From Harriotta raleighana (taxonomy: Eukaryota): a DNA stretch of 64,000 nucleotides. The position numbers and the translations under genes are program-made. Location: positions 9,094,708-9,158,707 of the forward strand of contig JBNZDD010013714.1 in assembly GCA_050575255.1 (NCBI GenBank), read 5' to 3'. The notes beneath the pieces were generated by a model, which was given only the letters and a program-made list of their open reading frames with translations, was not told where the DNA came from and ran no database searches. Shown here piece after piece: positions 975 to 63,400 of the stretch; the first letter of the stretch is position 1; each line of letters opens with the position of its first letter.

Positions 975-1730
975 ATAAATCAATCAATCAAAATTACATT
1001 GATATAGCGCCTTTCACATCGGGAGGACGTCCAAAGGCGCTGTCCAATCAAGTAGGGATCAGAGCAGGGGAGTAGGGGTCATGGGAAGGAAAATAGGAAA
1101 AATCGACAGTATATAATAAAACCCCATTTATGGATAAACGAGGTTTTACTGTATTTGTGGGCGAAAAGTGGCAGCCAAATTGTGCACAGCAGTGTCCCAC
1201 AAACAGTCATGGAAGTGGGGTTAGTGGAGAAAGGGGGAAAAGATGGCAAGGGGAGGAGTCGGGGTAGGGGGAAGGAGAGCAGGAAAAAACTATTGTATAT
1301 TTGTGGGCGAAATGTGGCAGCCAAAGTGCGCATAGCAGTGTCCCACAAACAGTCGCGTAAATGGGGCCTGGAGAGAAAGGGGGAAAAGAGAGTAAGGGCG
1401 GAGATGGAGGGAAAGGTGAGTGGGGCAAAGACAGGGAGGAAAGGGGGCAAGGGGGAAATCGGAAGGAAAAGGGGGGAGAAAGGGGGGCAAGAGAGAAGAG
1501 GGAGGGAAAGGTGGGTGGGGGGCAAAATCGGGGAGAAATGGGGAGGAAGGGGGGTAAGAGGGAAGACGGGAGTAAGAGGGAAGAGGGAGTGAAGGGGGGA
1601 AAGGGAGGGAGGGAAGAAGGAAAGGTCAGGGAGCAGGGGGGGATTAACAACAAACAACAATATCAACAACGATAAACAAAAAAAAGCAACAATACACACA
1701 GCAAAAGCAACAACAACAACAATTAAGAAC
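975..1730 (-). mobile_element. Non-LTR retroelement body: (TTG)-rich tract, polypyrimidine spacer, two tandem Deu-type domains, L2-like tail ending in (GATT)n
   Basis: Two copies of gactgtttgtgggacactgct.tgc.ca.tttggctgccac; tail tgtgaaaggcgctatatcaatgtaattttgattgattgatt; collinear with 61124-61432. Confidence 0.8.
1114..1151. mobile_element. 38-bp hairpin mini-MITE with Tc1/mariner-pogo-type ends and TA target duplication
   Basis: TA[cagtaaaacctcgtttat-cc-ataaatggggttttatta]TA on the minus strand; the site is empty (cccacaaaTAtacagtc) in the copy near 61290. Confidence 0.65.
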
Positions 1731-1829
1731 AGTCTAGCAACCGCTCCTTGTCCTCGCCGGCCGCCTGGATGATATTCCAAAAGGTGGGAACCAGGCCCAG
1801 TGTGGTGAAAGCTCCTCAGCTGCTGCACC

Positions 1830-2053
1830 AGGTGATTCAGCGATGACCCTGGTACCTCGGACACGGCGAGTCTGGCCAGTTCGCCCGGCAGCAGCAGCTC
1901 TACCCCCGTCGGGATCTCCCGCGACGAGATGGTCCGCCGCCTGCAGCACCAGGCCAAAGGGCTTCGCAAATGAACTGCTCGAAGATGTCGCCGTCGTCCA
2001 GACGCCGCCGTGCTCGGATGTACCTGTACCAGCTCCCTGCAGTTGCAGGCGAA
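1830..2053 (-). pseudogene. Degenerate histone H2B-derived sequence (histone fold) with three indels
   Basis: QVHP (2026-2015), DIFE....EA (1989-1960, shifted frame), [28 protein letters not shown] (1939-1856; 21/28 identical to canonical [28 protein letters not shown]), then shifted GTRV. Confidence 0.85.
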
Positions 2054-2896
2054 TGGGGTGTGGATCACCATTCTTGCACTGGATCCTCGGTAGCGATATC
2101 GATTCTGGTCGTGGCAGCGGTTGCGGTAGGGGCGGCGCTGATCGCTCCTCCGCCGCCAGTGATAAACAACAATAGTAAAAGACAAAATATAATTTGCGGA
2201 AAGCAGGTGACACTTAAACTGGAAGAGTAGAGTGATGACCAATTCCAACTGCACAGAAACCACTGTTGTCCAACTGGCCAGTTCCAAAGTTTAAAGAAAC
2301 ATAATAGACACAAGCAATTAATCCCCACAGGTTATACAGTCTTGTGCTGCACTAACACAGAGCAATAGGCCAAAGGGTCTTTCTCTGCTGTAAAGTTCTA
2401 CGATTCTATAATATTACTTTTTCAGCTGCAATGTATTCTGTACCAATTCTCAGAATTAATCTCTGGAACAAATACATTTCTCTGTCTCAGTTTTCATACG
2501 TTGCCCTGTGCCTTAAACTCTATATTCTAAAACTCAATGAAATTCTGCTGTCGGATAAAAGTTATACAATAATTGGAACCCAGAAAATATGAACCAATGG
2601 ATGTTTCTAAACTAATAATTAAAGATCAACTGTCAATAACAAAGGTTGAAATCAAAACAGTTTTAATAGGTCTTGGAGCGATTACAAAGATTAACAAAAC
2701 CTAAATTCAATGCTTCAAGCTGAGTAATGAATTAAAACTAATTTAAGCATTGAATGGCAAAGGAAAAATACATTTGTAAACTGAAGAGCCTGCAAAACCA
2801 CTTTTCGATATGCACTAAGCATTTGTAGCACAAGGAATAGAAAATAAAACTTAATTTGTGGAAACGCTTAATGTAGAAACATTGCCAGCAATCGTA

Positions 2897-35453
<32,557 letters not shown>

Positions 35454-39342: not shown

Positions 39343-39854
39343 AGTACAGTGTATTGTTAAACGTGGAACTGTAGAAATCTATCTCTCGCTAGACTAAAGT
39401 AAATGACTGCAAGTGGATTTGCAGTTAGAATCCCTAACTACTGACCCTGAGGTCTTCTATATGTGTGGTTCTCAGCTGCTTGTTGAATAAACTCTGAACA
39501 ATCATGTGGGGTGGGGGGAGGTGGAAAAAGTAATTGTTTTGTGTGCATTCCTAAATATAAATATTATTAAGTTGCATAAACCTAATATTCCCAATTATTC
39601 TACACTTTTCCCAATACTGTCCTATCTCTTGTCAATTGCACATGGGAGGGCAGATCACAACTATTTCCTATGCTAGTACATCTCTTGCAAGTTGGCTGGA
39701 ACATGCACTGAGGTCAACTCATTGGCTACAGTTAAAATATCATTAAAAATATCTTGCATTAAGTCAGTTCTTTGTGTGTATTCTAACAATTGGGTTTCTT
39801 TTTAAGGAGCTTCCACATCTATGTGTCCCTCTTCGGTCACAATTCCAATAGAAG

Positions 39855-40339
39855 ATGGCTCATTCAACAAGACACCGAGAACACAGCAGTGATAAGTATT
39901 CAGTAAAAGGTGAAGAAGATCACCATCGCAAAGACCGGCAACGTGATCACCGTCATCATGAAGATCGTCCCCATCGGGAACACAGAAAACATACGGATCA
40001 CAACAGCAGAAGCCCTCAAGATGGGGATCATTCTGAACCAAAATATAATAGAGACCGAACAAAGAGAAGAGAGCGAGAGAAATCGGAAGACCAAAGACAT
40101 GATGATGGAAATTCTCATTCAAGGGATGACCGACATCGGAGTGAGAGGGATTATCGTGAGAGGGAACATCGTGAGCGGGAACACCATAAAAGGAGTGATC
40201 GGGATAATCACTACAAAAAGACAGAGAGAGAGCATCATTCCCGAACAAACGATCGTTCAGCAGATGGTAATCATCAGCATTACAGAAACGAAAAAGAAGT
40301 TCCTTTCCCAGATAATCACGTTTCTTATAGAAATGACAG
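39855..40339 (+). CDS. MARVELD3: MARVELD3 coding exon 1 (R/H/D/E-rich cytoplasmic N-terminus)
   Basis: Kozak aagATGG; upstream acceptor tttttaag at 39806; donor AG|gtaaga; 485 nt. Confidence 0.85.
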
Positions 40340-40902
40340 GTAAGATCACATAAAATTGTCAGCCGTCGATTCAAAAGTCAAATTATCCCATCAATACAGC
40401 AGTTATTATGGAACATTGCTGATGTATCTAGAAATAAGAATGTAAAATCCAGGAAGTCAGAAATGTCTTGACAAAATGAAAAAGGTACTCCTGAAGATTC
40501 ACTCAATGGTTAAATGCATTTGTGGTCGATTCAACTTATTACCTTTGGTTCAGTTTAGCCTAGTTTTGCCTGCTGGTCATTGGGTTGCCTTTACCCAGAA
40601 GGTTAGTGGGGAACTGAAAGCAACTCTTTTACAGTAGCTCAAATGAATTTAATTGGAGATTTTTGAACATAGAATTAAGACTACATTCAAAAAACTTTTT
40701 TTTAAATTGACATTCCAAAGGGTAAAGGCAGAAAGTCAAACAGAGTGAAATGTAATAGTTTTTAAATCAACATTTACCCATCGAATCATCGGGAGCCCCT
40801 TTTGCATTTTCTCACTATCTGACAACCTCAGTTTTATTAGACTAGGACTAAAATATTTAGCATGGTATACACCTTCATATAGATTTGTAACCACTCTTAT
40901 AG

Positions 40903-41334: not shown

Positions 41335-41639
41335 GGAGTCCTGTAGCTCAGTGGTTAGAGCACTCACCTTACAAGTGAGGACCTGGGTTGAATTCCAAGC
41401 AGAGTGAAACCTTGGGCAAGTTTCCTTACTCCACCTGCTTAATAATAATCCCTCAAAAAAAACAATAATCAAATTGGTCATTTCAATCCACGACTGTTTG
41501 TGGGATACTGCTGTGTACAATTGCTGGCTGCCGCGTTTCACCCACGAAATATACAGTCAATTCACTTTGCAGAATATTCTGTGAAGCACTTTGAGACGTC
41601 TAGAAGATGTGATAAGGTGCAAGGATTATTATTATTATT
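41335..41639 (+). mobile_element. Full-length young tRNA-derived Deu-domain SINE with L2-like tail and (ATT)n end
   Basis: Head ggagtcctgtagctcagtggttagagc (A box) and ggttgaattcc (B box); Deu motif; tail caaggattattatt. Confidence 0.9.
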
Positions 41640-42794
41640 GAGATGCAAACAGTTGTGCAATTGCCAACTTTTTTTTATGAACAGAGAAAGCTCCTTAAAT
41701 AGCCTGTTGAGTAAAGGCAGATATAGAAAATCAGAGAAGCTTGCATGTTTAATTCCTGCTCTGCAGAATTTGCTGACTTAGCTTTGCTGGGGCAACAATT
41801 AGGCATCACAGTTGAAGGAGGGGCAAAGCTCATTAAGACAAGTTTTTTGGAATGAGAAATTGAACATACAGGACAGTGATGACCTCCACAATGAGCTAAC
41901 ACTCGTTGTTTTCAATTTGAGTCACTATCAATTGGATTAAAGTGCTATGTCTATAGAACAATCTCAACAAGATCCTGTGCCTCAAGAGAAAAATGGAAAA
42001 TTGTTTTTTCAAATAATTTGTTTTTGTTTAATAACTCATCACACAGATCAATCTACAGGGCCCACCATTACTGAAATGACAGTCAGAACAATCTCGGGGA
42101 CAATATTGAATCACTTGTTTTTCTCTTCAGTTTTGAGTTCTGCTTAATGACAAACAAGGTGTTGGCACTGCATTTTTCACATGCTGCACATAGCAGCTTG
42201 TTGATGCATTTACATTAATACTCCAGGTAGTGTTTAAGATGTAAGCATCATGTCAAACGGCACAAGAAATTGTTGCATTATACGTTTACATGAGAACGTC
42301 GGGTTTTCGCACCAGAGCTATATGGTATAAATGTAGTTTCCTGTTGTTTAAATGGGATTGGAAATATCAAAACTATGGATAATGTGCAATGAAATTAGTG
42401 AAATTGACCTGTTTGCCAGCAGTCAATAGAAACTATCCTTTGACTTCAATCAGAGCAAAGCTAAAGGAGTGGACAGAATGTGGCATTTCTGGTTTAACGG
42501 GTTGGTGCAAGTCACGTGACTTCATACAACACAAGTTTCTGTAATGATTAATTCCCTAGTTACTCTTAAACTGCTGAAGATCAGGAACATTGAGACAACA
42601 TGGTAATGCAATCATAGCAATGGAGACACTGGCTTGATTTCTTCCCCCCATCCACCCATCCCACTCACTCTTCTGATAATAATAATCCTTGCATCTGATC
42701 TCCACTATGCTACTATGAGATGAATGGCTAAGTGAATGTATAGCATATTTGAATATTCGGGTGTTAATGGTTGGTTGTGTTTTGGTTGTTGCAG

Positions 42795-43405
42795 GTCTTT
42801 GTCAGTTGATGGAGGTGCTGCTGAATCTTTTAATTCTGGTGTGCGGGGCAATCTCCTACGCTGGGACTGGGGGCTACACTGACCTGTCCAGTCTGGGAAG
42901 CCTTTACTACTACTCTTTCGGATCAGCGTATAGTGGATTTCAAGGAGCAGAGGCTGAAAAAGTAAACAAACTGGATGCTGAATTTTATCAGCTGAAGTTG
43001 CCAACAGTCATTGCCACAATGGCATACAGTGGGGCCCTGATGACGTTTGCGTGCCTTTTGTTGGTTCTAGGTGTGGCACGGATACCATGGAGATTGCCAT
43101 TCTTACTGATTATTGAATGTGGACTGGACATAGTGATAGGTTTTGCCTACATACCTGCTCTGTATTTTTATTTCCAACACCTAATAGAAGGCTATAATTC
43201 AGCAGTGTGTAAGGAAAGGATGAGCATGTACAAAAGCAAAGGATATGATGGATTTAGCTGTAGTCTGCATGGTGCTGACATTGCTGCTGGTTTGTGTGCT
43301 GCATTAGCAGTTATAGTATATGAACTCAATGCTTATGCAGACATTTTAGCATTTAGGACAGTTAAAAAACAAAAGGGACAAAATGAGGAAAGTTATGGTG
43401 TGTAG
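42795..43405 (+). CDS. MARVELD3: MARVELD3 alternative terminal exon A (MARVEL domain; isoform about 410 aa)
   Basis: ttgcag|GT; CQLMEVLLNLLIL, TGGYT..SLG..YYY.FG.AYSGF, LD..FYQLKLP, YIPALYFYF, VCKER...Y.SKGY.GF.CS.HGADI. Confidence 0.95.
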
Positions 43406-44451
43406 ATAACTTAAAGGTTTTGTTTGGATAAACTTATTGCAGAATACAGAGCAGTTTCAGTCATGTTTTAGTTAACAAATCTTGTTTTAAGTAAGGAATA
43501 TTTTTTAATAATAGAAATGTGCTCATCAGTCACTTTGGGACACTGTGTAAACTGTTAAGCAGTTATGTTACACCAAAAGCTACAAGTTTATCTAAAAGAA
43601 ACTCAGTGAAAAGTGCACCAGTTACTCAACGATAACATTATCCATCCACTAAAATTTTAAACAGCAAATGCAAAGTTCATGAGTAAAGATCCAAAACACT
43701 GCATTGTTCTATTTACTGTATTCTATAAAATGCAGCTGTGAAAATAACTTAACACTTATTTAATGGGTGTATAAGTATGTTTACTTTTTCTATTGACAAT
43801 TGGTACTGTTTGTGTTTCATAAAATATACTATGCTATAGTTCTGACAAAACATATACTGCTGATTTGTTCAGTTTGGAAACTTAATATTGTACAAATTTC
43901 AATTACATTAAAAGATACAATGTCCAATTTGTAATTTTTTTCAAAGTTACTATATCATCAATTGGTGTAAAAATGCCATGTAATACAGAAAAATCCTGCA
44001 AGCAACACAGAAATGAATAATTGTGTTTACTTACCAGGACACTTTTTATATCGATACTCTTTCAGGTTTACAAGCATTATGGAACCATAGCGTTATTCTT
44101 ACATTTCCTCAACCAGTGTCAATTGATGTGCTCTAACACAACTGGGCTAGTTTTGGAACTCATCAGAACATAGCATAATAATGGGATTGGGGATTCATGG
44201 AGAAGGATATTATTGTATATCTCATTTCAATGCAGTCCTTGCATTGGTTGATTTCTGATAAAATTTCCATAGAAATAATCACAAAAGGTGATTTAGGATT
44301 AAATGTTACTGGGATAAATGGTAAATCAAAATGATTAAATCCAAGGTATTCAATATTGTGCTATGAAAAAATTAGGTTATTGAAAGTTGCAGGGTGAATG
44401 AAGAATAAAATATTCCTAAACAATCACTTACCTGCTATTCCTGTCTTGCAG

Positions 44452-45068
44452 GTATAATTCAGTTGGTGGAGGTCATATTGAATCTCCTGGTGTTGGTGTG
44501 TGTGGTAGCATCATACGTCGTAATCTCAGGATACAGCAGTAACTTGGGTCTGGCCACTAGCTTTTTCAGCATTAACAGTGACTTTTCTCCAATTGAAGGG
44601 GAGGAACTGAAGGAAATACAGAAACTTGACCAACAGTTTGCATTTCTCCGAGCACCTGTACTATACGGTGGCATTGCAGTGTCCATAGGCATGTTTGCAA
44701 TAACCATGGGTGTCATGATTCGAGGTGCCCGACTTTTGAGGATTAGATGTTTAAAGTGGTTGATTTTTGAAGTCCTATTCAATGTGTTAGCATCTTTGGG
44801 TTATGGAGTATCAGTTGGACTTTACTTGTATTTTGTCCTCCAAATTAATAGTACAGATCTCTGTAAGATCAGAGAAGGTATCTATGCAAGGCATGGCCTC
44901 AACTGGATGAACTGCGATGTGTCTGGAACAGACGGTGCAGTAGCATTCTTTGGAATACTGCTTTCTATATTGTATTGCGTTAGTGCAGTGCTGGCAGTAC
45001 TTTGCTACTGCAAAGCACCCCTACAAAAAAACACTCAAAACAGGAACTTAGAACAAAATTGCAATTAG
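44452..45068 (+). CDS. MARVELD3: MARVELD3 alternative terminal exon B (second MARVEL domain; isoform about 412 aa)
   Basis: cttgcag|GT; VEV.LN..VL.C.VASY, SP.EG.EL, LDQQ...LR.P..YGG.AVS, LQINSTD.CK.RE..YAR.GL.WM.C...GTDGA; AATAAA at 45074. Confidence 0.95.
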
Positions 45069-51000: not shown

Positions 51001-51797
51001 TCTGCTGCTTGCCACAATTCTCCCACATTATCACCAAAGCAGTCTAGGGATGTAAGAATCAATAAATTAGCTCACATGCACGTGCTGTTATTGCAAGACT
51101 AGCACGCAAGCCTTAACAGCAGGAAGTGCAAACATTATGTTCCTTCTGGATACCTATTTGGAAGCTTTAAAACAAACATGAAAATGTGGACTATGTACAA
51201 TAATCTGGAAAAACACTGTTCCATACAGGATGACATTAAATTCAGAATGAAATATGAGACAAAAGATAAAGCATTTTGCTAGATTAGATAACCCAAATTC
51301 AATTCAAATATTTTCAAACTACAGTGGAATGATACAGCCTCAGCTATACAAATGTAATTTTGTTGTTGTTGCCAAAATTATTTTCAATTCATCACATTAA
51401 GTAGTATTCACTTTGCAAATCTTGTTTCAGATTAACTTTTATGGCTCACAAGCATTTGATTTGAAACAATTGCTTGCATTTGATACGCTTAATCATGCTG
51501 GAACATCCTCAATGCTTTTAAGTGTAATAACCATTAGTTGATTGAGAAATAGGATAGCTAATTTACAGCAGCCAATTTGATGAGATGAATGATCAATTTT
51601 TTGCTGAATTAGGATGAATGATGGATTGGCCAGAAACTAAGAAAGATCTTTGAAATAAAGATACTTTGCTAGAATCTATCCCAGCAATGTGTAAACAAAG
51701 AGATTAGTCTGTTTTTTGCATGTAAAAATCATTCTTAATTCAGAGTTGTAAAGTTATGGACTAAATCTGCAATCTGTTTATTTTGATTAGAATTCCT

Positions 51798-52103
51798 AGT
51801 CCTGTAGCTCAGTGGTTAGAGCACTCGCCTTACAAGCGAAAGACCTGGGTTCGATTCCAGGCAGGGCAAAACCATAGGCAAATTTCTTTACTCCACATGC
51901 CTGATAATAATCTCAGATTTTTTTTAAAAAAAAATCAGAAATGGTCATTTCAATCTACGACTGTTTGTAGGATACTGCTGTGTGCAATTGGCTGCTGTGT
52001 TTCGCCCACATATAGTCAATTCACTTTACAGTATATTCTGTGAAACGCTTGAGACGTCTAGAAAACGTGAAAAGCACTACATGAAATGTAAGGATTATTA
52101 TTA
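51798..52103 (+). mobile_element. Full-length copy of the same SINE
   Basis: Same head, body and tail. Confidence 0.9.
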
Positions 52104-53305: not shown

Positions 53306-54481
53306 CTACAGTGCTGTGTCATAAACTTCCTGTTGGGCACATCTGCTGCTGTCTCTTTCAGATTCAGCTTCTGAAACTGGATCCTGATGTTGCTTCATTT
53401 GCTCCTTTACTTCCTCTTCTAAGTCTGGTGGCACAACTAGTTGATCCTCTGGGTCTGGCTGTGCAGGTGCTGCAAAATACCCACACTTTTTCTTTGGTGC
53501 CTCTGTGGCCACCTCAATAATATTGTGGCTTTTTTCAAGGGGTACCACAGATCCATTTGAAAACTTCTTACCCTGTAGGTTCAAGGCAGACGGAGATTTC
53601 TTCAGATCATTTCCATCTTTATTAACTGTTAACGGTGACCCAGCATTTACACCATTTTGCCTCTGTATCTTTAAATAAGCTCCTGGACTGTCATCCTCAG
53701 ACATACTAACAGACAGCCCTTCATCACCAACTTGTGAAGGGGAGGAAATCCCAGAAACTCTGAATTGGAAACAGTGAATGTCTACTTCGACTTCTAGTTT
53801 GCTGCCATTAGAAATAACTCCTTCAACTGGTCGATCATCATCACTGTCGAGGCCATTGTCAGAGTGGTTACCGGAGAACGTTGCGCTAGAAAGCTGCCGC
53901 TGGAACACACTGGTCGAAGTGCTGGGATGCAGACTGCAGCGGCGTTCAGAACGAGGGACCGCACCAGCCTCCAGGCTCGTGGCTGGCTGCTCATCCGAAG
54001 CTGTAGATCCCACCTCACTGCTGACCTCTGAAGCAGACATCTCACTGTTGAATTCAGATGCTATACCACTACTAGACGATGGGGTGACCGGAAACTGCGC
54101 ATTCTCTTTTACTAACGTGTTAACAGGTGGAGCATACATGCCTGGACTCGCCATCGAAACTCCGTGCACTTCACATGTGCAGCCGTCCTCTCCAATCCTC
54201 AAATTCACCACCACAACACCAACGTTGTCATAGCAACCGTAGCTCTGGGCAAGTGTGCAAAGTTTCTTGGCTGCTGCGAGAGGATCAGGCACATTCTGAA
54301 CAGCTTCTATCGCCTCACCGTATGACACATTTTCCCAGAGTGTCCTGTTGCCTAAGATGAAAAATTCATCCTGAGCAGTAAGTGATATTGTGTGAACGTT
54401 GGGTTTTGGAAGGACCCATGGGAACAGGTAGGTGCAACCCAACAGACGGGTAGAACAAGTCACACCATTCACTTTGTTGTC
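53306..54481 (-). CDS. PHLPP2: PHLPP2 terminal exon ([12 protein letters not shown]...EVYDTAL*)
   Basis: tcttag|GAC; TAG stop at 53308-53306. Confidence 0.95.
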
Positions 54482-57400
54482 CTAAGAAAGAGAAACAGTA
54501 TTAATCACAGAATTCCAGCAACTGTGATTCCTTTTTAGTAAACTAAGAACAGGAGGCAGAATACGCAACACAAACTATCAGTCCAATTCCACCCATTTAA
54601 CAGCATAAATTACAGTAAGCTACTGGTTATGTAAACAGAATCACTGCATGAATTCTAAACAAAAAATAAACATTTATGGTCTTCTACATGCCGTGACATT
54701 AGTACATAGGTACCTATTTACATAACACACATACACACAAGGTAAAGAAGGGTAAAATACTGGTGCCTACCTCAGTTATAATGGCTTTTTGTTGTTTCAC
54801 TCTTTCCAACTCCTCGTCACACTGCTCAAGACTGAACACTTTTGAGAGCAGCAATGGCTGCCCATCACGACACACCACCACTTGACAACTGCCCACATTG
54901 GCCACAGTGAGGGTGAAATTGCTGTTATGGTCACTGGGATCATGTCGAATGTGACAAAGAACCGTTGAGGAGCCCAACTTCTGTCCCACCATCCCCAGTT
55001 TTCTGTAATAACAAGAGTTATATGGAATAAGTATTGAGAATATTGCTAACAATCTAGTTTCATGACCTGTAACGGCAGCTTTCTCACCTATGAGACACAA
55101 GGAATGTGTGGGTCATATAAACATTGTCCACGTTGGATTGTTGCAATTCCTCTGCCAGTACATCCCCCACAGTGCACTGCAACAAACGTGGGATCTCCAT
55201 ATTCCTTTCTCCATCAAATACGCCATACAAGGCTTCCAGGTTATCTCCAAAGCTGTCTAGGGCAAGCACTGAGAGGCAGAGTCTAGAAACACAAACAATT
55301 TTATAGGATACACTGTAAAGGCATAGCAATATCCCACAAACAGCTATGAAGTGAAAGACCAATTTTACTTTGGGGATTTGTTGGCAAGGACACTGGGAGA
55401 CACTAAGTCCCGTCTCTTTTCGAATAGTGCTTTGGAATCTTTAAAGATCTACCTGAACAGGTAGATGGGATCTTGGTTTAACATCTCATCCAAAGAATAC
55501 CATCTCCAACAATGTAACTCTGTGCCCCACAGCACAGGAAGTGTCAGTTTAGATCATGTGATTCCAAGTCCCGGGCATGGGTTGTGAACCCACAAAGTTC
55601 TGATTGAATAGGCAAACGTGTTACCGCTGACGCCCTCTCAATGAAACAACTAGCACCTAAATGTGTACTAACTTGTTCCTGTGTCCTGCCATTTCAGCGT
55701 ATCCATGACTCCAAAGCGTAGGACCTCCTATGGAATCATTCGTCAGAACTGGTGGCTTTTGATCAATTTTCAAAGTGGCAATATGACTGTAAGAAAAGGA
55801 GATGATTGACAATTGTTTTCATTTCTACCTCAATTTACAGAATATTCCTGAGGTTGAGAAAACTGTTGAAATGACAATTCTACAATTTTCAAACCTGCTG
55901 CCCCCTATAATGCAGCCAAAAACAGGGGTTATTTCCGCCAAGTTGTCATTTGAACGACACCCAACAACATAGCAATGGTGGCCAGCCAAAGTGAGATGAC
56001 CAGAATCACAAAATCAAAAAGTTTATTCACCAACAATTCATAAATGTTACATCAACTCATTGCTCAATCTTAATGAAGGGGAAAAAATATATATTGTGGA
56101 ATATTATGTGGTACAGGTCTTCATGGCATACAACATCGCTGAAGTGCTCAGATATTTCCATCTTAATCCATGCTGCACTGGTGCAAGGATCAGCTAAGAT
56201 CTAGAATTGTTCAAAGACTGGGTATATTAGAAATCATCTCTTAAATGCTATCCAATTGTGTGAAATAACTTGGATTTATATCTTGTCTAGAGAAAGATGT
56301 AATCTCCTCTTTGATGGTATTGTAGTTATTTATCAAAAGGAAATTAAATAAATGTGTTTTAGTTCAAAGATAAGGCAACAGCACAAAACTGTTCCAATTT
56401 GTAGCACTCTAGGTCTCAAACAGTTGGACCAATTTTAAAATGGCCAGAGTTAATGTTTCAGTGAACAAAACCTTGAACATCAACATGTGACTGGGTTACA
56501 AAATGACAATAGAAAATAATACCCTGGCTCCCTGATGGCATAGTGGGTAAAGGCACTACCCCAGTGTAGCACAAAGCCATACAGACCAGAATGTCCCAGG
56601 TTCGATTCCTGGTCAGCGCTGAGCTGGCTGATCATCACCCCCATACAGCTCTTGTACAGCTCCTAGGGGCTGGTTAGAGAGTGATATTTGGAAGAGGCCT
56701 GGGAGCAGGTCATCTGGCTGCTTGCTGTGTTTGGGAATGGTGCATGACAAGCTGGAAAAGAGAACCAGAAACAATACTGGCCCAAACTCCTACATTTTCA
56801 ATATTTATTTAAACAGACACAAGAGTGTCAGCAAACGGTTCCATTAACTTCTTGTCACTGATGACAATCAGCATTTACCAAACATTATCTATCATCAGGC
56901 TAGATCTAAACAGGGCTGTATCTACCTGAATATTTCTAGGGTCTTGTGGTCAAGGACCAGGTTTGTGTTACCAGTCAAGTCCAGTTCCTGAAGAGAGGAT
57001 GGGAGCGTCTCAGGCATCAAAATCTCTGTAAGCTCATTACAACTGAGGTCAACCAGCTAAAATGGGACCAGAACATCAGGAGGAAAAACAATGGCATTAG
57101 TGTGAGACCCGAAACCATTACCCAAGTCAATCGATACAACCATTTGCTATTCAAATAAGAATGTGCAAAGGCTAAAAATTAGTAGTTACAAAACTCCATA
57201 GACCGTAACTCAAACTGTCATCAGATAGAAGAAAGAAATGCAAGGCAATTCAACCTGGGTTCTTGGAATTTCCATTGTTGTACCTATTGACTGTTTTAGA
57301 AAATACCATACATAAGATAAGCCTTGCACAGAGCTTTAAAGTTGACAACTTGCACTTATTGATATTGATAAACGGTGGTACATCTCACATATCCTGACAA

Positions 57401-60400: not shown

Positions 60401-63400
60401 CATTCTGGGAGCTCTGCTAATTGGTTGTGCTGAACATCGAAAACATCCAGAGGGGTATGATCCAGTTGGTTGGGGAGACTCTGAAGATGATTGTGTCCAA
60501 CAAACAGCTTTTGTAGGCTCAAACTGGACAGCAACCTGTGACAATCCATTGAATGAAGGGGACCACAGGGGGATTGAGAAAGCAGTATTGTACTTTTAGT
60601 ATGAAATAAAATCGAATTAAATTCTATATGAAGCTACAAACAAGACTGAGAATATGGAGTATATATTCACATTTTGTGATACCTACCTCACAGGTAATTC
60701 TGTAATCAAATTATGACTAAAATCCAACAATTCCAGTTTCTTGGTCTCACAAACCCAATCAGGTACAGATTCCAGTCTGTTCCTATGAAGGTAAAAATAA
60801 AATGGATTCAGATCTATCCATGCCTATCCTCATCTCCCACTACTATATGTACAGAACAAACTGCTCTGAACCTAATGTCTGCAGTGTCGCATATAGGACA
60901 CTATCAGATGCACAAAACCACTTCAGGATTCTTCACCTCCAAATGCTTGAGCTTTTAAATAGTTAATCAGGAATTACTTTTGGGGGGAAAATTGATGGTA
61001 CTATTTACAAAGTGATTTAACTAGACAATTGCTTGATTAAATTACATTTTATGATTAGGATTTACAAGAATTCCCAATTAAATTTATAATTGTAGCTCAT
61101 GAACTTGTATTAAACTTTCATTTCAATTTGGCTGCCGCGTTTCACCCACAAATATACAGTCAGTTTTCCTGCTCTCCTTCTCCCTACCCCGACCCCTCCC
61201 CTTACCCTCTTTCCCCCCTTTCTCCCCTAACCCCACTTCCATGACTATTTGTAGGACACTATTGTGCGTAATTTGGCTGCCACGTTTCGCCCACAAATAT
61301 ACAGTCAATTTACCTACTCTCCTTCCCCTTACCCCAACCCCTCCACCCCTCCTCTGACTGTTCAGCACCTTGGGATGTCCTCCCGCTGTGAAAGATGCTA
61401 TATAAATGTAATTTGGATTGATTTTTTGATTAATTACTTGTACAGGTACACATATATGTCTACCTACCTTGAGAGATCAAGGTGGACCAGTTGACCAGGA
61501 AGTGGGTAGACACTTAGTGTTGTCAACCCTGAATAAGATATCCAAAACAAGGTTTAAAACAAAAAAGTATCAAAATTCAATAAGAATCTAAATTGAACAC
61601 AGTTATGCTGTTACTGTTGATTGGAGTAGCTGGGATTACTGATTTTTTAAACCACAAAATGTTATAGAAAATATTGAATCCGCTAAGCACTGAGCGCACA
61701 GTCCAAGAATTCGAACCAAAGAAAATTATTGGGATTAAATAAATGACAAATAGAAACATCAATAGCAAAGCTCTGAAATCTCTAAGGTGAAATTTTTTTT
61801 AAAAAATATTGACTTACGGTTGGAGCCAGCATACAGTGCTCTCAAAGAGAAACCACTTAGCGTGAGGGTGGTCAGATTGTTGCGTTCACAGTGCAGTTGT
61901 TCAATACCTCCAACTACACTTAAATCAAGTTCAGTCAACAGATTATCCCGCAGATCCAGGCTAGTTATGTGATTGATTGCCGCTAGGTTCTCCATCACTA
62001 CTGAACGAATTGAATTCAGTCTAACAGGCACAACAAGAAACAATTAGAGATTAGTAGCATCTTCCAATGAATGGGGACTCGGCACAGTCAAGTGGCCAGA
62101 AACACCCAGTTTCTAAACAGTCTTTACTGATTCCATTTACAGCAAAGGATGACACCTACTCAAAAATACAAATAGGCAAATAAAGAAATAATGCTGAAAT
62201 TGCACAGCATGTTGATGGCTAGCTGAAAGTGAATACAGGCGGTCCTCAAGTTACGTCAGGGTTAGGTTCCTAAAATGTGGTGTAAGTCGAATTTGTATGT
62301 AAGTCGAGTCACCCCCCTATAATGCTTACAGTAACATACAGTGATTGGTTGTAGTGTATAGTGAGCTGCCCTCTCTCCCCTGCACCCCTCCTAATATGTA
62401 CAGTACTGTAAATAAAATAAAATATTACTATACTTACATGGCTTCATTGTGAGTCTGGCACTCGATGTAGCGCAACGCAGGAGATCACACGCGATGTAGC
62501 GCAACGCAGATCACATGTGACGTAGCGCAACGCAGATCACGCGTGACGTAGCGCAACGCAGATCACACGTGACGTAGCGCAGTCTAAAGGCTGGAGAGTA
62601 CTGTACCGCCGAGCTCACAGACTCACACAGTACCTGTACAGTACACACTCGCGTCTCGCCTCCATCCTGTTCCTGTCCTGAACGCGTATCGTGGTCCCGT
62701 AAGTGTTGAGAGCGGCGACTCCAGTTTTCTATCGCGCGTGGGGCAACTAAAGTATTTACATAGTAGTGTCGTAACTTCGAGAACTTGGATGTAACTCGGA
62801 CGTAATTTTACTGATTTTCAGTGTCGTAACTTCGAATTGTCGTACCTCGAAACGTCGTAACTAGAGGACTGCCTGTACTGCCTTAATGCTTTGGATGCTA
62901 ATTGATTTTTTACTTCTGATGACACTTAGTTACAGTAAGGAAACAGTCAATTCAGCCCAACTATTACTGCCAATGTTTGGATGCCACAAGAAACTCCAGC
63001 TGTTACTGGATATGCTGCAGTTTGGAAACAAACAATCCTTTCCTACTTGTAAAATGTGGGCTGCACAGAATAGGTTTGGGAAGGAGTTCAAAATCCATCA
63101 AGTGTGAGTAACAGACAGCTGGGAGAGCAGTCCTGACATCTACTGGTTATTGAGAATATTTCATTCAGTTAATTGTTTACAAAGAGTTATCCATCCATGA
63201 CATTAATTATGTATGCAAAACTTGAGAGCCATCATAAAGCATTCTAAACGTGCACATTCCTTCATGGCTTTTCTAATAAATGCAGGATATTATTCCAATG
63301 TTTCATAGCTCTGAGATACTACCCTGTGTGAAAGGTACTGTATAAATGTAAATTGTTGTAGCTGTAGTAAATCTAGTAAATTAAAAAAAATCTAAAACTA

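Follow-up and report, generated by a model that had tools for sequence, protein, structure and literature searches.

A non-autonomous, LINE-tailed retroposon family headed by histone H2B-variant and RUNDC1 sequence in the chimaera Harriotta raleighana

Within a 64,000-nucleotide stretch of the Harriotta raleighana genome (contig JBNZDD010013714.1, forward-strand positions 9,094,708 to 9,158,707; hereafter the window), we identified a full-length, minus-strand copy of a ~1.2-kb repeat that is a histone-headed, LINE-tailed, non-autonomous retroposon. Its head combines an H2B variant with RUNDC1, and we consider it likely (probability roughly 0.7) that this family is transcribed by RNA polymerase II (Pol II) from its own head, copied by a LINE reverse transcriptase and altered by A-to-I edits that became fixed. 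Under this reading, a SINE/LINE 3' end would first have gained RUNDC1 5' sequence, of which residues 1-26 would then have been replaced by the H2B variant, through splicing or template switching; the RUNDC1 middle would have been deleted afterwards, followed by a doubling of the unit that precedes the tail. The GC-rich head would drive Pol II transcription of the element, a LINE reverse transcriptase would copy its RNA, and A-to-I RNA edits in the source lineage would be fixed as A>G changes in DNA. An initial annotation of the window had proposed a captured histone gene as the 5' module; H2B is present in the head, but the head is built from two genes.

The window copy, a member of subfamily C, aligned end to end with the family consensus at 80% identity, placing its start near 2160 and its end at 978 (Table 1) rather than at the limits first given (975..2170). 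The (TTG)n tract, C/T tract, duplicated unit and LINE-type tail with (GATT)n of the initial annotation were all recovered, as was a truncated second copy, there placed at 61124-61432. Its GC- and CpG-rich block was equally evident (17-18 CpG per 200 nt at 1801-2200, against a window-wide CpG observed/expected ratio of 0.34); the part said to contain H2B (2170-1735) does so only as far as 1816, with 1817-1735 derived from RUNDC1. No reverse transcriptase was found in the element, none of four translations of the window copy matched Pfam, and Rfam returned no match to the element near the cut-off. The window copy also carries a private palindromic insertion of ~44 nt inside unit 2 (1112-1153; fold z -4.4), which we take to resemble a small DNA transposon remnant.

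Table 1. Coordinates of the element, its modules and a second family copy within the window.
Feature	Position	Strand	Basis
Full-length element copy, subfamily C	978..2160	-	End-to-end consensus alignment and end mapping
GC-rich 5' start, probably from the coding sequence of the H2B-variant Gly/Arg-rich N-tail, with short-repeat expansion	2072..2160	-	Comparison with L087 and P0023
Decayed coding sequence for the H2B histone fold, TGA-terminated	1816..2071	-	H2B homology and indel comparison
RUNDC1 5' coding remnant: both ends of residues ~27-110, middle gone, private 17-nt deletion	1735..1817	-	tblastn matches of P0025 in older copies (E down to 1e-21); nucleotide alignment with old copies, B and C
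(TTG)-rich tract	1645..1734	-	Read from sequence; also in consensus
C/T-rich tract with internal repeats	1355..1644	-	Read from sequence
Unit 1, common to 3' part of local tRNA-headed SINE	1291..1354	-	Sequence alignment
Unit 2, a second copy of unit 1 (84% identity across 101 nt, flank included), with private palindromic insertion at ~1112-1153	1105..1208	-	
LINE-type 3' tail, ending in (GATT)n and predicted to form a stem-loop at 1041-1006	978..1085	-	105-nt match to LINE tail consensus at 86%; z -3.0 for the 975-1050 fold
Same-family copy, 5'-truncated, beginning inside unit 1	61124..61429	+	87% to subfamily C consensus over 316 nt

The H2B histone fold first noticed in the head was borne out by tblastn of the window copy (E 2e-8 to 3e-10, small database) and by the head of the family consensus, which across 220-240 nt is 72-74% identical in nucleotides to this genome's H2B genes (E 5e-32 to 6e-25). 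Judged by protein similarity, the donor is a chimaera variant nearer to the Callorhinchus milii 'late histone H2B.L4-like' (P0002) than to this genome's intact H2B genes: subfamily B was 75% identical to P0002 versus 60-63% for three intact H2B genes here, and one locus (L086) reached 84% protein identity to P0002. The closest donor protein carries the name H2B.L4-like, and orthology with H2B.K is not implied. An intact donor variant was not among the 40 scored of 221 genome candidates, nor among 150 of 600 in a second search. Another locus, L087, is a one-off H2B-variant retrocopy that has a long N-tail, a stop and 3' sequence of its own and is linked to the element body; as a query it led to the same C. 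milii annotation (XP_042202150, XP_042202152 and XP_042202158). This complete retrocopy (L087 positions 1853-2920) is fused to a body with C-like letters, from which the donor gene was likely late-expressed in the germ line and recombined again with element RNA. A replication-type stem-loop follows the stop in one (L039) of the three intact H2B genes checked and, as remarked at the outset, is absent 3' of the stop in the element, as it is in L042, L045 and L087. The L045 locus (positions 1423-1803; G000:C13217) encodes an intact, divergent H2B; no stem-loop lies within the 120 nt that follow, its contig has several other histone-fold matches, and it is possibly a second variant.

Behind the H2B stop, ~250 nt of the oldest copies translate as RUNDC1 residues 27-110, with up to 76% identity over 71 residues and E values down to 1e-21 at genome scale (tblastn of P0025); the 76% match in L129, for instance, covers residues 38-108. 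The top Atlas match for this piece was a cluster with PF26030 (RUNDC1) in 18% of its members; a Pfam library without PF26030 gave nothing meaningful for the RUNDC1-derived peptides, and a short-query search found no homologue among 188 candidates. The RUNDC1 middle was lost stepwise (L142, L143, L145, L146), leaving only the two ends in subfamilies B and C and in the window copy, which by itself had no tblastn match to RUNDC1. All 25 of the 25 genome matches to RUNDC1 end at or before residue 112. The last exon of this genome's RUNDC1 is 90% identical to that of C. milii and 78-82% identical to those of sharks and rays, and exon 1 was found neither in the 29.9 kb around the last exon, which includes N gaps, nor among 86 scored candidates. 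Because L135 and L139 hold RUNDC1 residues 2-111 and TTG without H2B, this single tandem-duplicated locus suggests that RUNDC1 was captured before H2B; no element body was seen within 20 kb behind either copy. The H2B-RUNDC1 junction is identical in all copies displayed. It can be read as a GT that follows the H2B part in L087 and an AG that precedes the RUNDC1 part in L135 and L139, but a switch at 1 nt of microhomology fits too; head capture would be consistent with either GT-AG splicing or a template switch.

Searches of this 1.1-Gb genome with the head returned 862 candidates, and each of the 40 that were scored was a match, figures to be read as lower bounds and not as copy numbers. The head continues into the body in 28 of 29 other fetched loci, 23 of which extend to the tail; in L021 it is followed by a second, inverted head. 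The proposal that the body belongs to a repeat family was upheld, the head being neither single-copy nor unlinked, the two outcomes named in advance as counting against it. A further shared 5' module was seen among the fetched copies only in segmental duplicates; UQCC2 gave one match among two candidates, the gene itself, and its first exon had no match to the element loci. That the heads are independent H2B processed pseudogenes, or a chance adjacency of pseudogene and repeat, might be entertained since L087 demonstrates that gene-derived one-offs exist, and since five old loci have common flanks and are segmental duplicates of one insertion, not separate insertions. However, a 1-nt frameshifting deletion that the genes lack is common to all 43 of the 43 B and C copies, all examined copies have the same H2B-RUNDC1 junction, and 28 of 29 run into the same body; refuted by shared derived indels, the junction and the subfamily ladder, this explanation keeps a vanishingly small probability. 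That shared deletion is one of three frameshifting deletions in the fold of the window copy, for which a check of sharing had been advised, whereas the 26-nt and 4-nt deletions proved private to it.

Searches with the tail returned 1,808 candidates, and among 28 mapped loci of the tail-picked sample (29 other loci, L061 left out), 26 were 5'-truncated and without the H2B head, with H2B sequence in the other 2. Seventeen of the 28 (within L052-L080; one adjoins an N gap) begin at one same unit position, which coincides with the 3' arm of the unit's predicted hairpin, a fold no better than that of shuffled sequences (z -1.2); this common truncation point may represent a stall, a cut site or a separate short subfamily. 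Three unit-to-tail matches in 260 kb chosen independently of the element would, by rough extrapolation, put the genome-wide number of 3' fragments in the ten-thousand range. Most copies lack a target-site duplication: both ends were available for 28 of the 46 copies tried, and a shared word of at least 7 nt occurred in 5 of these 28 versus 8% of mismatched pairs. Two loci (L065 and L089) have possible target-site duplications of 10 and 11 nt, atypical of the family. Traits of the L2-mobilised type are represented by a tail stem-loop, short terminal repeats, 5' truncation and poor target-site duplication.

The body unit, ~65-70 nt long, corresponds to the 3' portion of the tRNA-headed SINE common in the window (88-89% over 72-76 nt), which we take to be CmiSINE-like; across window SINEs, the stretch in common with the unit spans 41-76 nt, with nothing matched further upstream in the SINE. 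Subfamily B has one unit copy and subfamily C, the latest and the only one with the doubling, has two. What had been described as two tandem Deu domains appears to be a short unit from a SINE 3' end rather than a whole Deu domain. The accessible text of PMC5499810 describes CmiSINE as a CORE-SINE whose 3' end of ~160 bp is shared with the Deu-bearing SacSINE1-CM and with L2-2_CM, Deu matches lying at SacSINE1 124-258 and the shared 3' 160 bp being treated apart; because of this sharing, the unit would have DeuSINE ancestry at most. Hybrid 3' ends that mix the C/T spacer with the head or tail of a tRNA-SINE occur at L024 2640-2964, L007 1163-1330 and L009 2550-2750, which reads as repeated module exchange between the element and tRNA-SINE families. 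ARAGORN also reported tRNA-Val(tac) at window positions 30139-30208, 41337-41407 and 51797-51870; these calls fall on heads of the common SINE and do not mark tRNA genes.

Over its terminal 105 nt, the element matches at 86% identity the consensus tail of a LINE family for which 8,408 candidates were returned, and it aligns there more closely to this LINE tail than to the SINE tail, which, together with the missing reverse transcriptase, agrees with the original description of a non-autonomous, LINE-tailed element. In one LINE copy with the same tail (L025), a partial RVT_1 match that falls short of the cut-off (E 0.0045) lies upstream, and an Atlas search with the LINE C-terminus returned no name. 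From its motifs, we take the partner LINE to belong to the L2 clade. This label, which is putative, draws on those motifs and on the accessible part of PMC5499810. LINEs of the stringent type require their own 3' end for retroposition, and SINEs borrow that end (PMC3747384, accessible part). It is very probable that the LINE protein binds the element's predicted tail stem-loop (z -3.0) in trans.

In a tree of the H2B segment, the order was gene, L087, old copies, subfamily B and subfamily C (L085, L117, L117b, L005 and L021b are omitted, and three truncated rows are poorly aligned). Divergence of copies from their own consensus is 6.5-6.6% at non-CpG sites and 18-20% at CpG sites, values from best matches and hence biased young, and the window copy differs from the consensus by 10% and 16%, respectively. 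At an assumed rate of ~1 × 10−3 per site per million years (PMC5499810, accessible part), we infer that the copies are roughly 60-100 million years old. The suggestion that the head degenerated inside a source element and was then recently copied was therefore half right: degeneration did occur in source elements, but the copying is old, as the 10% non-CpG divergence of the window copy indicates. Diagnostic variants segregate within subfamily C (+2 in 10 copies and -33 in 5, with or without a 6-nt duplication).

One might suppose that the element encodes a needed tailless H2B-like protein, kept as a frame or through its translation, because the consensus frame is open from a gained ATG through the fold (~95 aa in C and 130 aa in B) and several shared fold indels are in frame (+3, +6, -3 and -33). 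Substitutions argue otherwise, at 11 synonymous changes over 61 sites and 39 non-synonymous over 197 (0.18 versus 0.20 per site, equal rates), as do a +2 frameshift common to 10 of 29 C copies, a 33-nt deletion that cuts into the fold in 5, and two other frames with almost as few interruptions (0-4 stops per 147-161 codons). There is no selection on the protein, which is not what is kept; frame preservation was dropped on the shared +2 frameshift, and an encoded protein, a reading already largely refuted, is highly improbable.

Evolution of the source lineage was marked by an excess of A>G on one strand. Relative to a majority-vote stand-in for the source, A>G had occurred at 22 of 58 sites and T>C at 3 of 42 (p = 4e-4), and when tallied as column counts against real H2B genes, at columns where three such genes agree, A>G affected 15 of 39 in C versus 2 of 31 for T>C (p = 0.002). 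Fixed A>G changes accumulate along the ladder, from 2 (L087) and 3 (L086), through 9 of 40 in B, to 15 of 39 in C, and the RUNDC1 part has a weaker bias (A>G 4/17, T>C 1/14, C>T 6/29). Inserted heads decay symmetrically, with A>G at 2.6-2.7% and T>C at 2.2-2.6%, and their CpG is lost, whereas the CpG count of the source lineage climbs (24, 29, 34), which is why the head is diverged and yet CpG-rich. Among copies, the C tails are not symmetric (A>G 4.4% versus T>C 2.3%, p = 0.005). The neighbour preference expected of ADAR was non-significant (with a 5' G, 4 of 18 changed, versus 18 of 40; p = 0.14), and no 3' G enrichment was found at A>G sites; we hold ADAR A-to-I editing to be the source of the A>G excess with odds only slightly better than even.

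The same pattern could arise if a single germ-line master locus, a chimeric pseudogene with a flanking promoter, repeatedly seeded LINE-mobilised copies while itself evolving as DNA, its A>G changes coming not through editing but through transcription-linked asymmetry together with GC-biased conversion, or through reverse-transcriptase error. A ladder-shaped tree fits one master, the CpG rise (24, 29, 34) is as in an unmethylated, GC-favoured locus, the ADAR context is not significant, and transcription-linked A>G asymmetry is established, at a ratio of roughly 1.5-2. That ratio falls well short of the per-site A>G/T>C ratio of ~6 here, however, GC-biased conversion should lift T>C equally, and the several diagnostic variants within C (+2, -33 and the 6-nt duplication) suggest several sources; we regard a single master locus as unlikely, if much less so than an encoded protein, and retain the self-transcribed, edited family as our preferred reading.

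ARAGORN found nothing at the head. The element has no Pol III A/B boxes, and runs of T5-T6 lie inside it, so Pol II transcription is likely. A common 5' start is kept by old copies with different internal deletions and across subfamilies: A(A/G)ATGG(C/T)(G/A) begins 14 of 28 complete copies, 7 of the other 14 retain ATGG, and the window copy has lost the A(A/G)ATGG start. We take this motif to be a putative YY1 site. Initiation of human L1 requires YY1 (PMC10778729, accessible part). Comparison with L087 indicates that the motif could have arisen from Ser/Gly codons through A>G changes, and an internal Pol II promoter with a YY1-like start seems reasonably probable. The constant 5' start and the CpG richness of the head would point to such a promoter only indirectly. 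Taken to its furthest extent, this would be a self-promoting lineage of coding pieces with a borrowed LINE tail that persisted for tens of millions of years through successive sources, its evolution driven by ADAR edits that became fixed in every RNA round and its YY1-like start possibly made from histone-tail codons, a picture that as a whole we put forward only tentatively and think rather doubtful.

Elsewhere in the window, a 159-codon open frame on the same strand (2897-3376, minus) is a probable last exon that ends ~740 nt upstream of the element and had no Pfam match. Ordinary host genes are represented by a RING-finger frame (12777-13556, plus), a pair of MARVEL-like frames, of which one matched Pfam weakly (42719-45068, plus), and the end of a PP2C-domain gene (53306-55112, minus). 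At 39802-40377, low-complexity, Arg/His/Asp-rich open frames overlap on both strands, and the one frame scanned had no Pfam match.

Among known systems, the nearest in design are certain SVA elements, which as a class are mobilised by L1 through poly(A). SVA_F1 (MAST2 exon 1) and pt_SVA_D6 (STK40 exon 1) have GC-rich 5' modules from coding genes in 84-94 copies, and such captured exons, likely gained by splicing, can act as internal promoters, as shown for SVA_F1 (PMC6139936, accessible part). Like these, the element is a non-autonomous composite with a GC-rich piece of a protein-coding gene as its 5' module; unlike these hominid elements, each with one first exon as described there, it combines two coding pieces with a sequence-specific LINE tail ending in (GATT)n, comprises several subfamilies and headed copies that number in the hundreds or more, and shows a strong A>G ratchet. 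The accessible part of 10.1101/2025.02.02.635956 describes LINE-1 chimeras in which gene promoters are co-opted. With CmiSINE (SINE2-1_CM, formerly SINEX-1_CM), SacSINE1-CM and L2-2_CM, the element shares a holocephalan host, a common 3' end and a putatively L2-type tail (accessible parts of PMC5499810 and PMC3747384), but CmiSINE and SacSINE1-CM as presented in PMC5499810 carry Pol III boxes in a tRNA head, together with a body of CORE or Deu type, and for the element neither a tRNA head nor such a body is shown. SINEX-1_CM was rejected as an existing name for the element, being the tRNA-headed SINE2-1_CM. Platypus snoRTE and the bird RTE SINEs likewise combine a LINE tail with a head of other than tRNA, 5S or 7SL origin, but their partners are RTE elements, their heads are snoRNA or unassigned GC-rich sequence, and no protein-coding gene is identified in the accessible parts of PMC7245038 and PMC5499810. 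Germ-line H2B variants also leave retrocopies, as for H2B.K and H2B.N, yet those are single retrogenes of intron-containing genes and not a self-propagating family (PMC8857922, accessible part). The closest head donors are the C. milii H2B.L4-like and RUNDC1 (P0025) genes, both of which in the element are broken, fused and neutral. On its sequence features, the element is not an SVA, nor strictly a SINE (its head is coding-derived and it has no Pol III boxes), and would work like SVA_F1 and pt_SVA_D6. Our search of the open-access literature found no histone-headed or RUNDC1-headed element.

Together, these results indicate that a successful SINE-like family can arise from a sequence-specific LINE tail and ordinary coding sequence, with no small-RNA head and outside the L1/SVA system, and that the ladder of subfamilies records each step of its assembly. 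Since the heads answer histone searches (528 candidates versus 8 near-full H2B matches), they can be expected to inflate counts of histone and RUNDC1 genes when chimaera genomes are annotated. If the A>G ratchet is indeed editing, the family would be a natural record of RNA edits inherited through retrotransposition.
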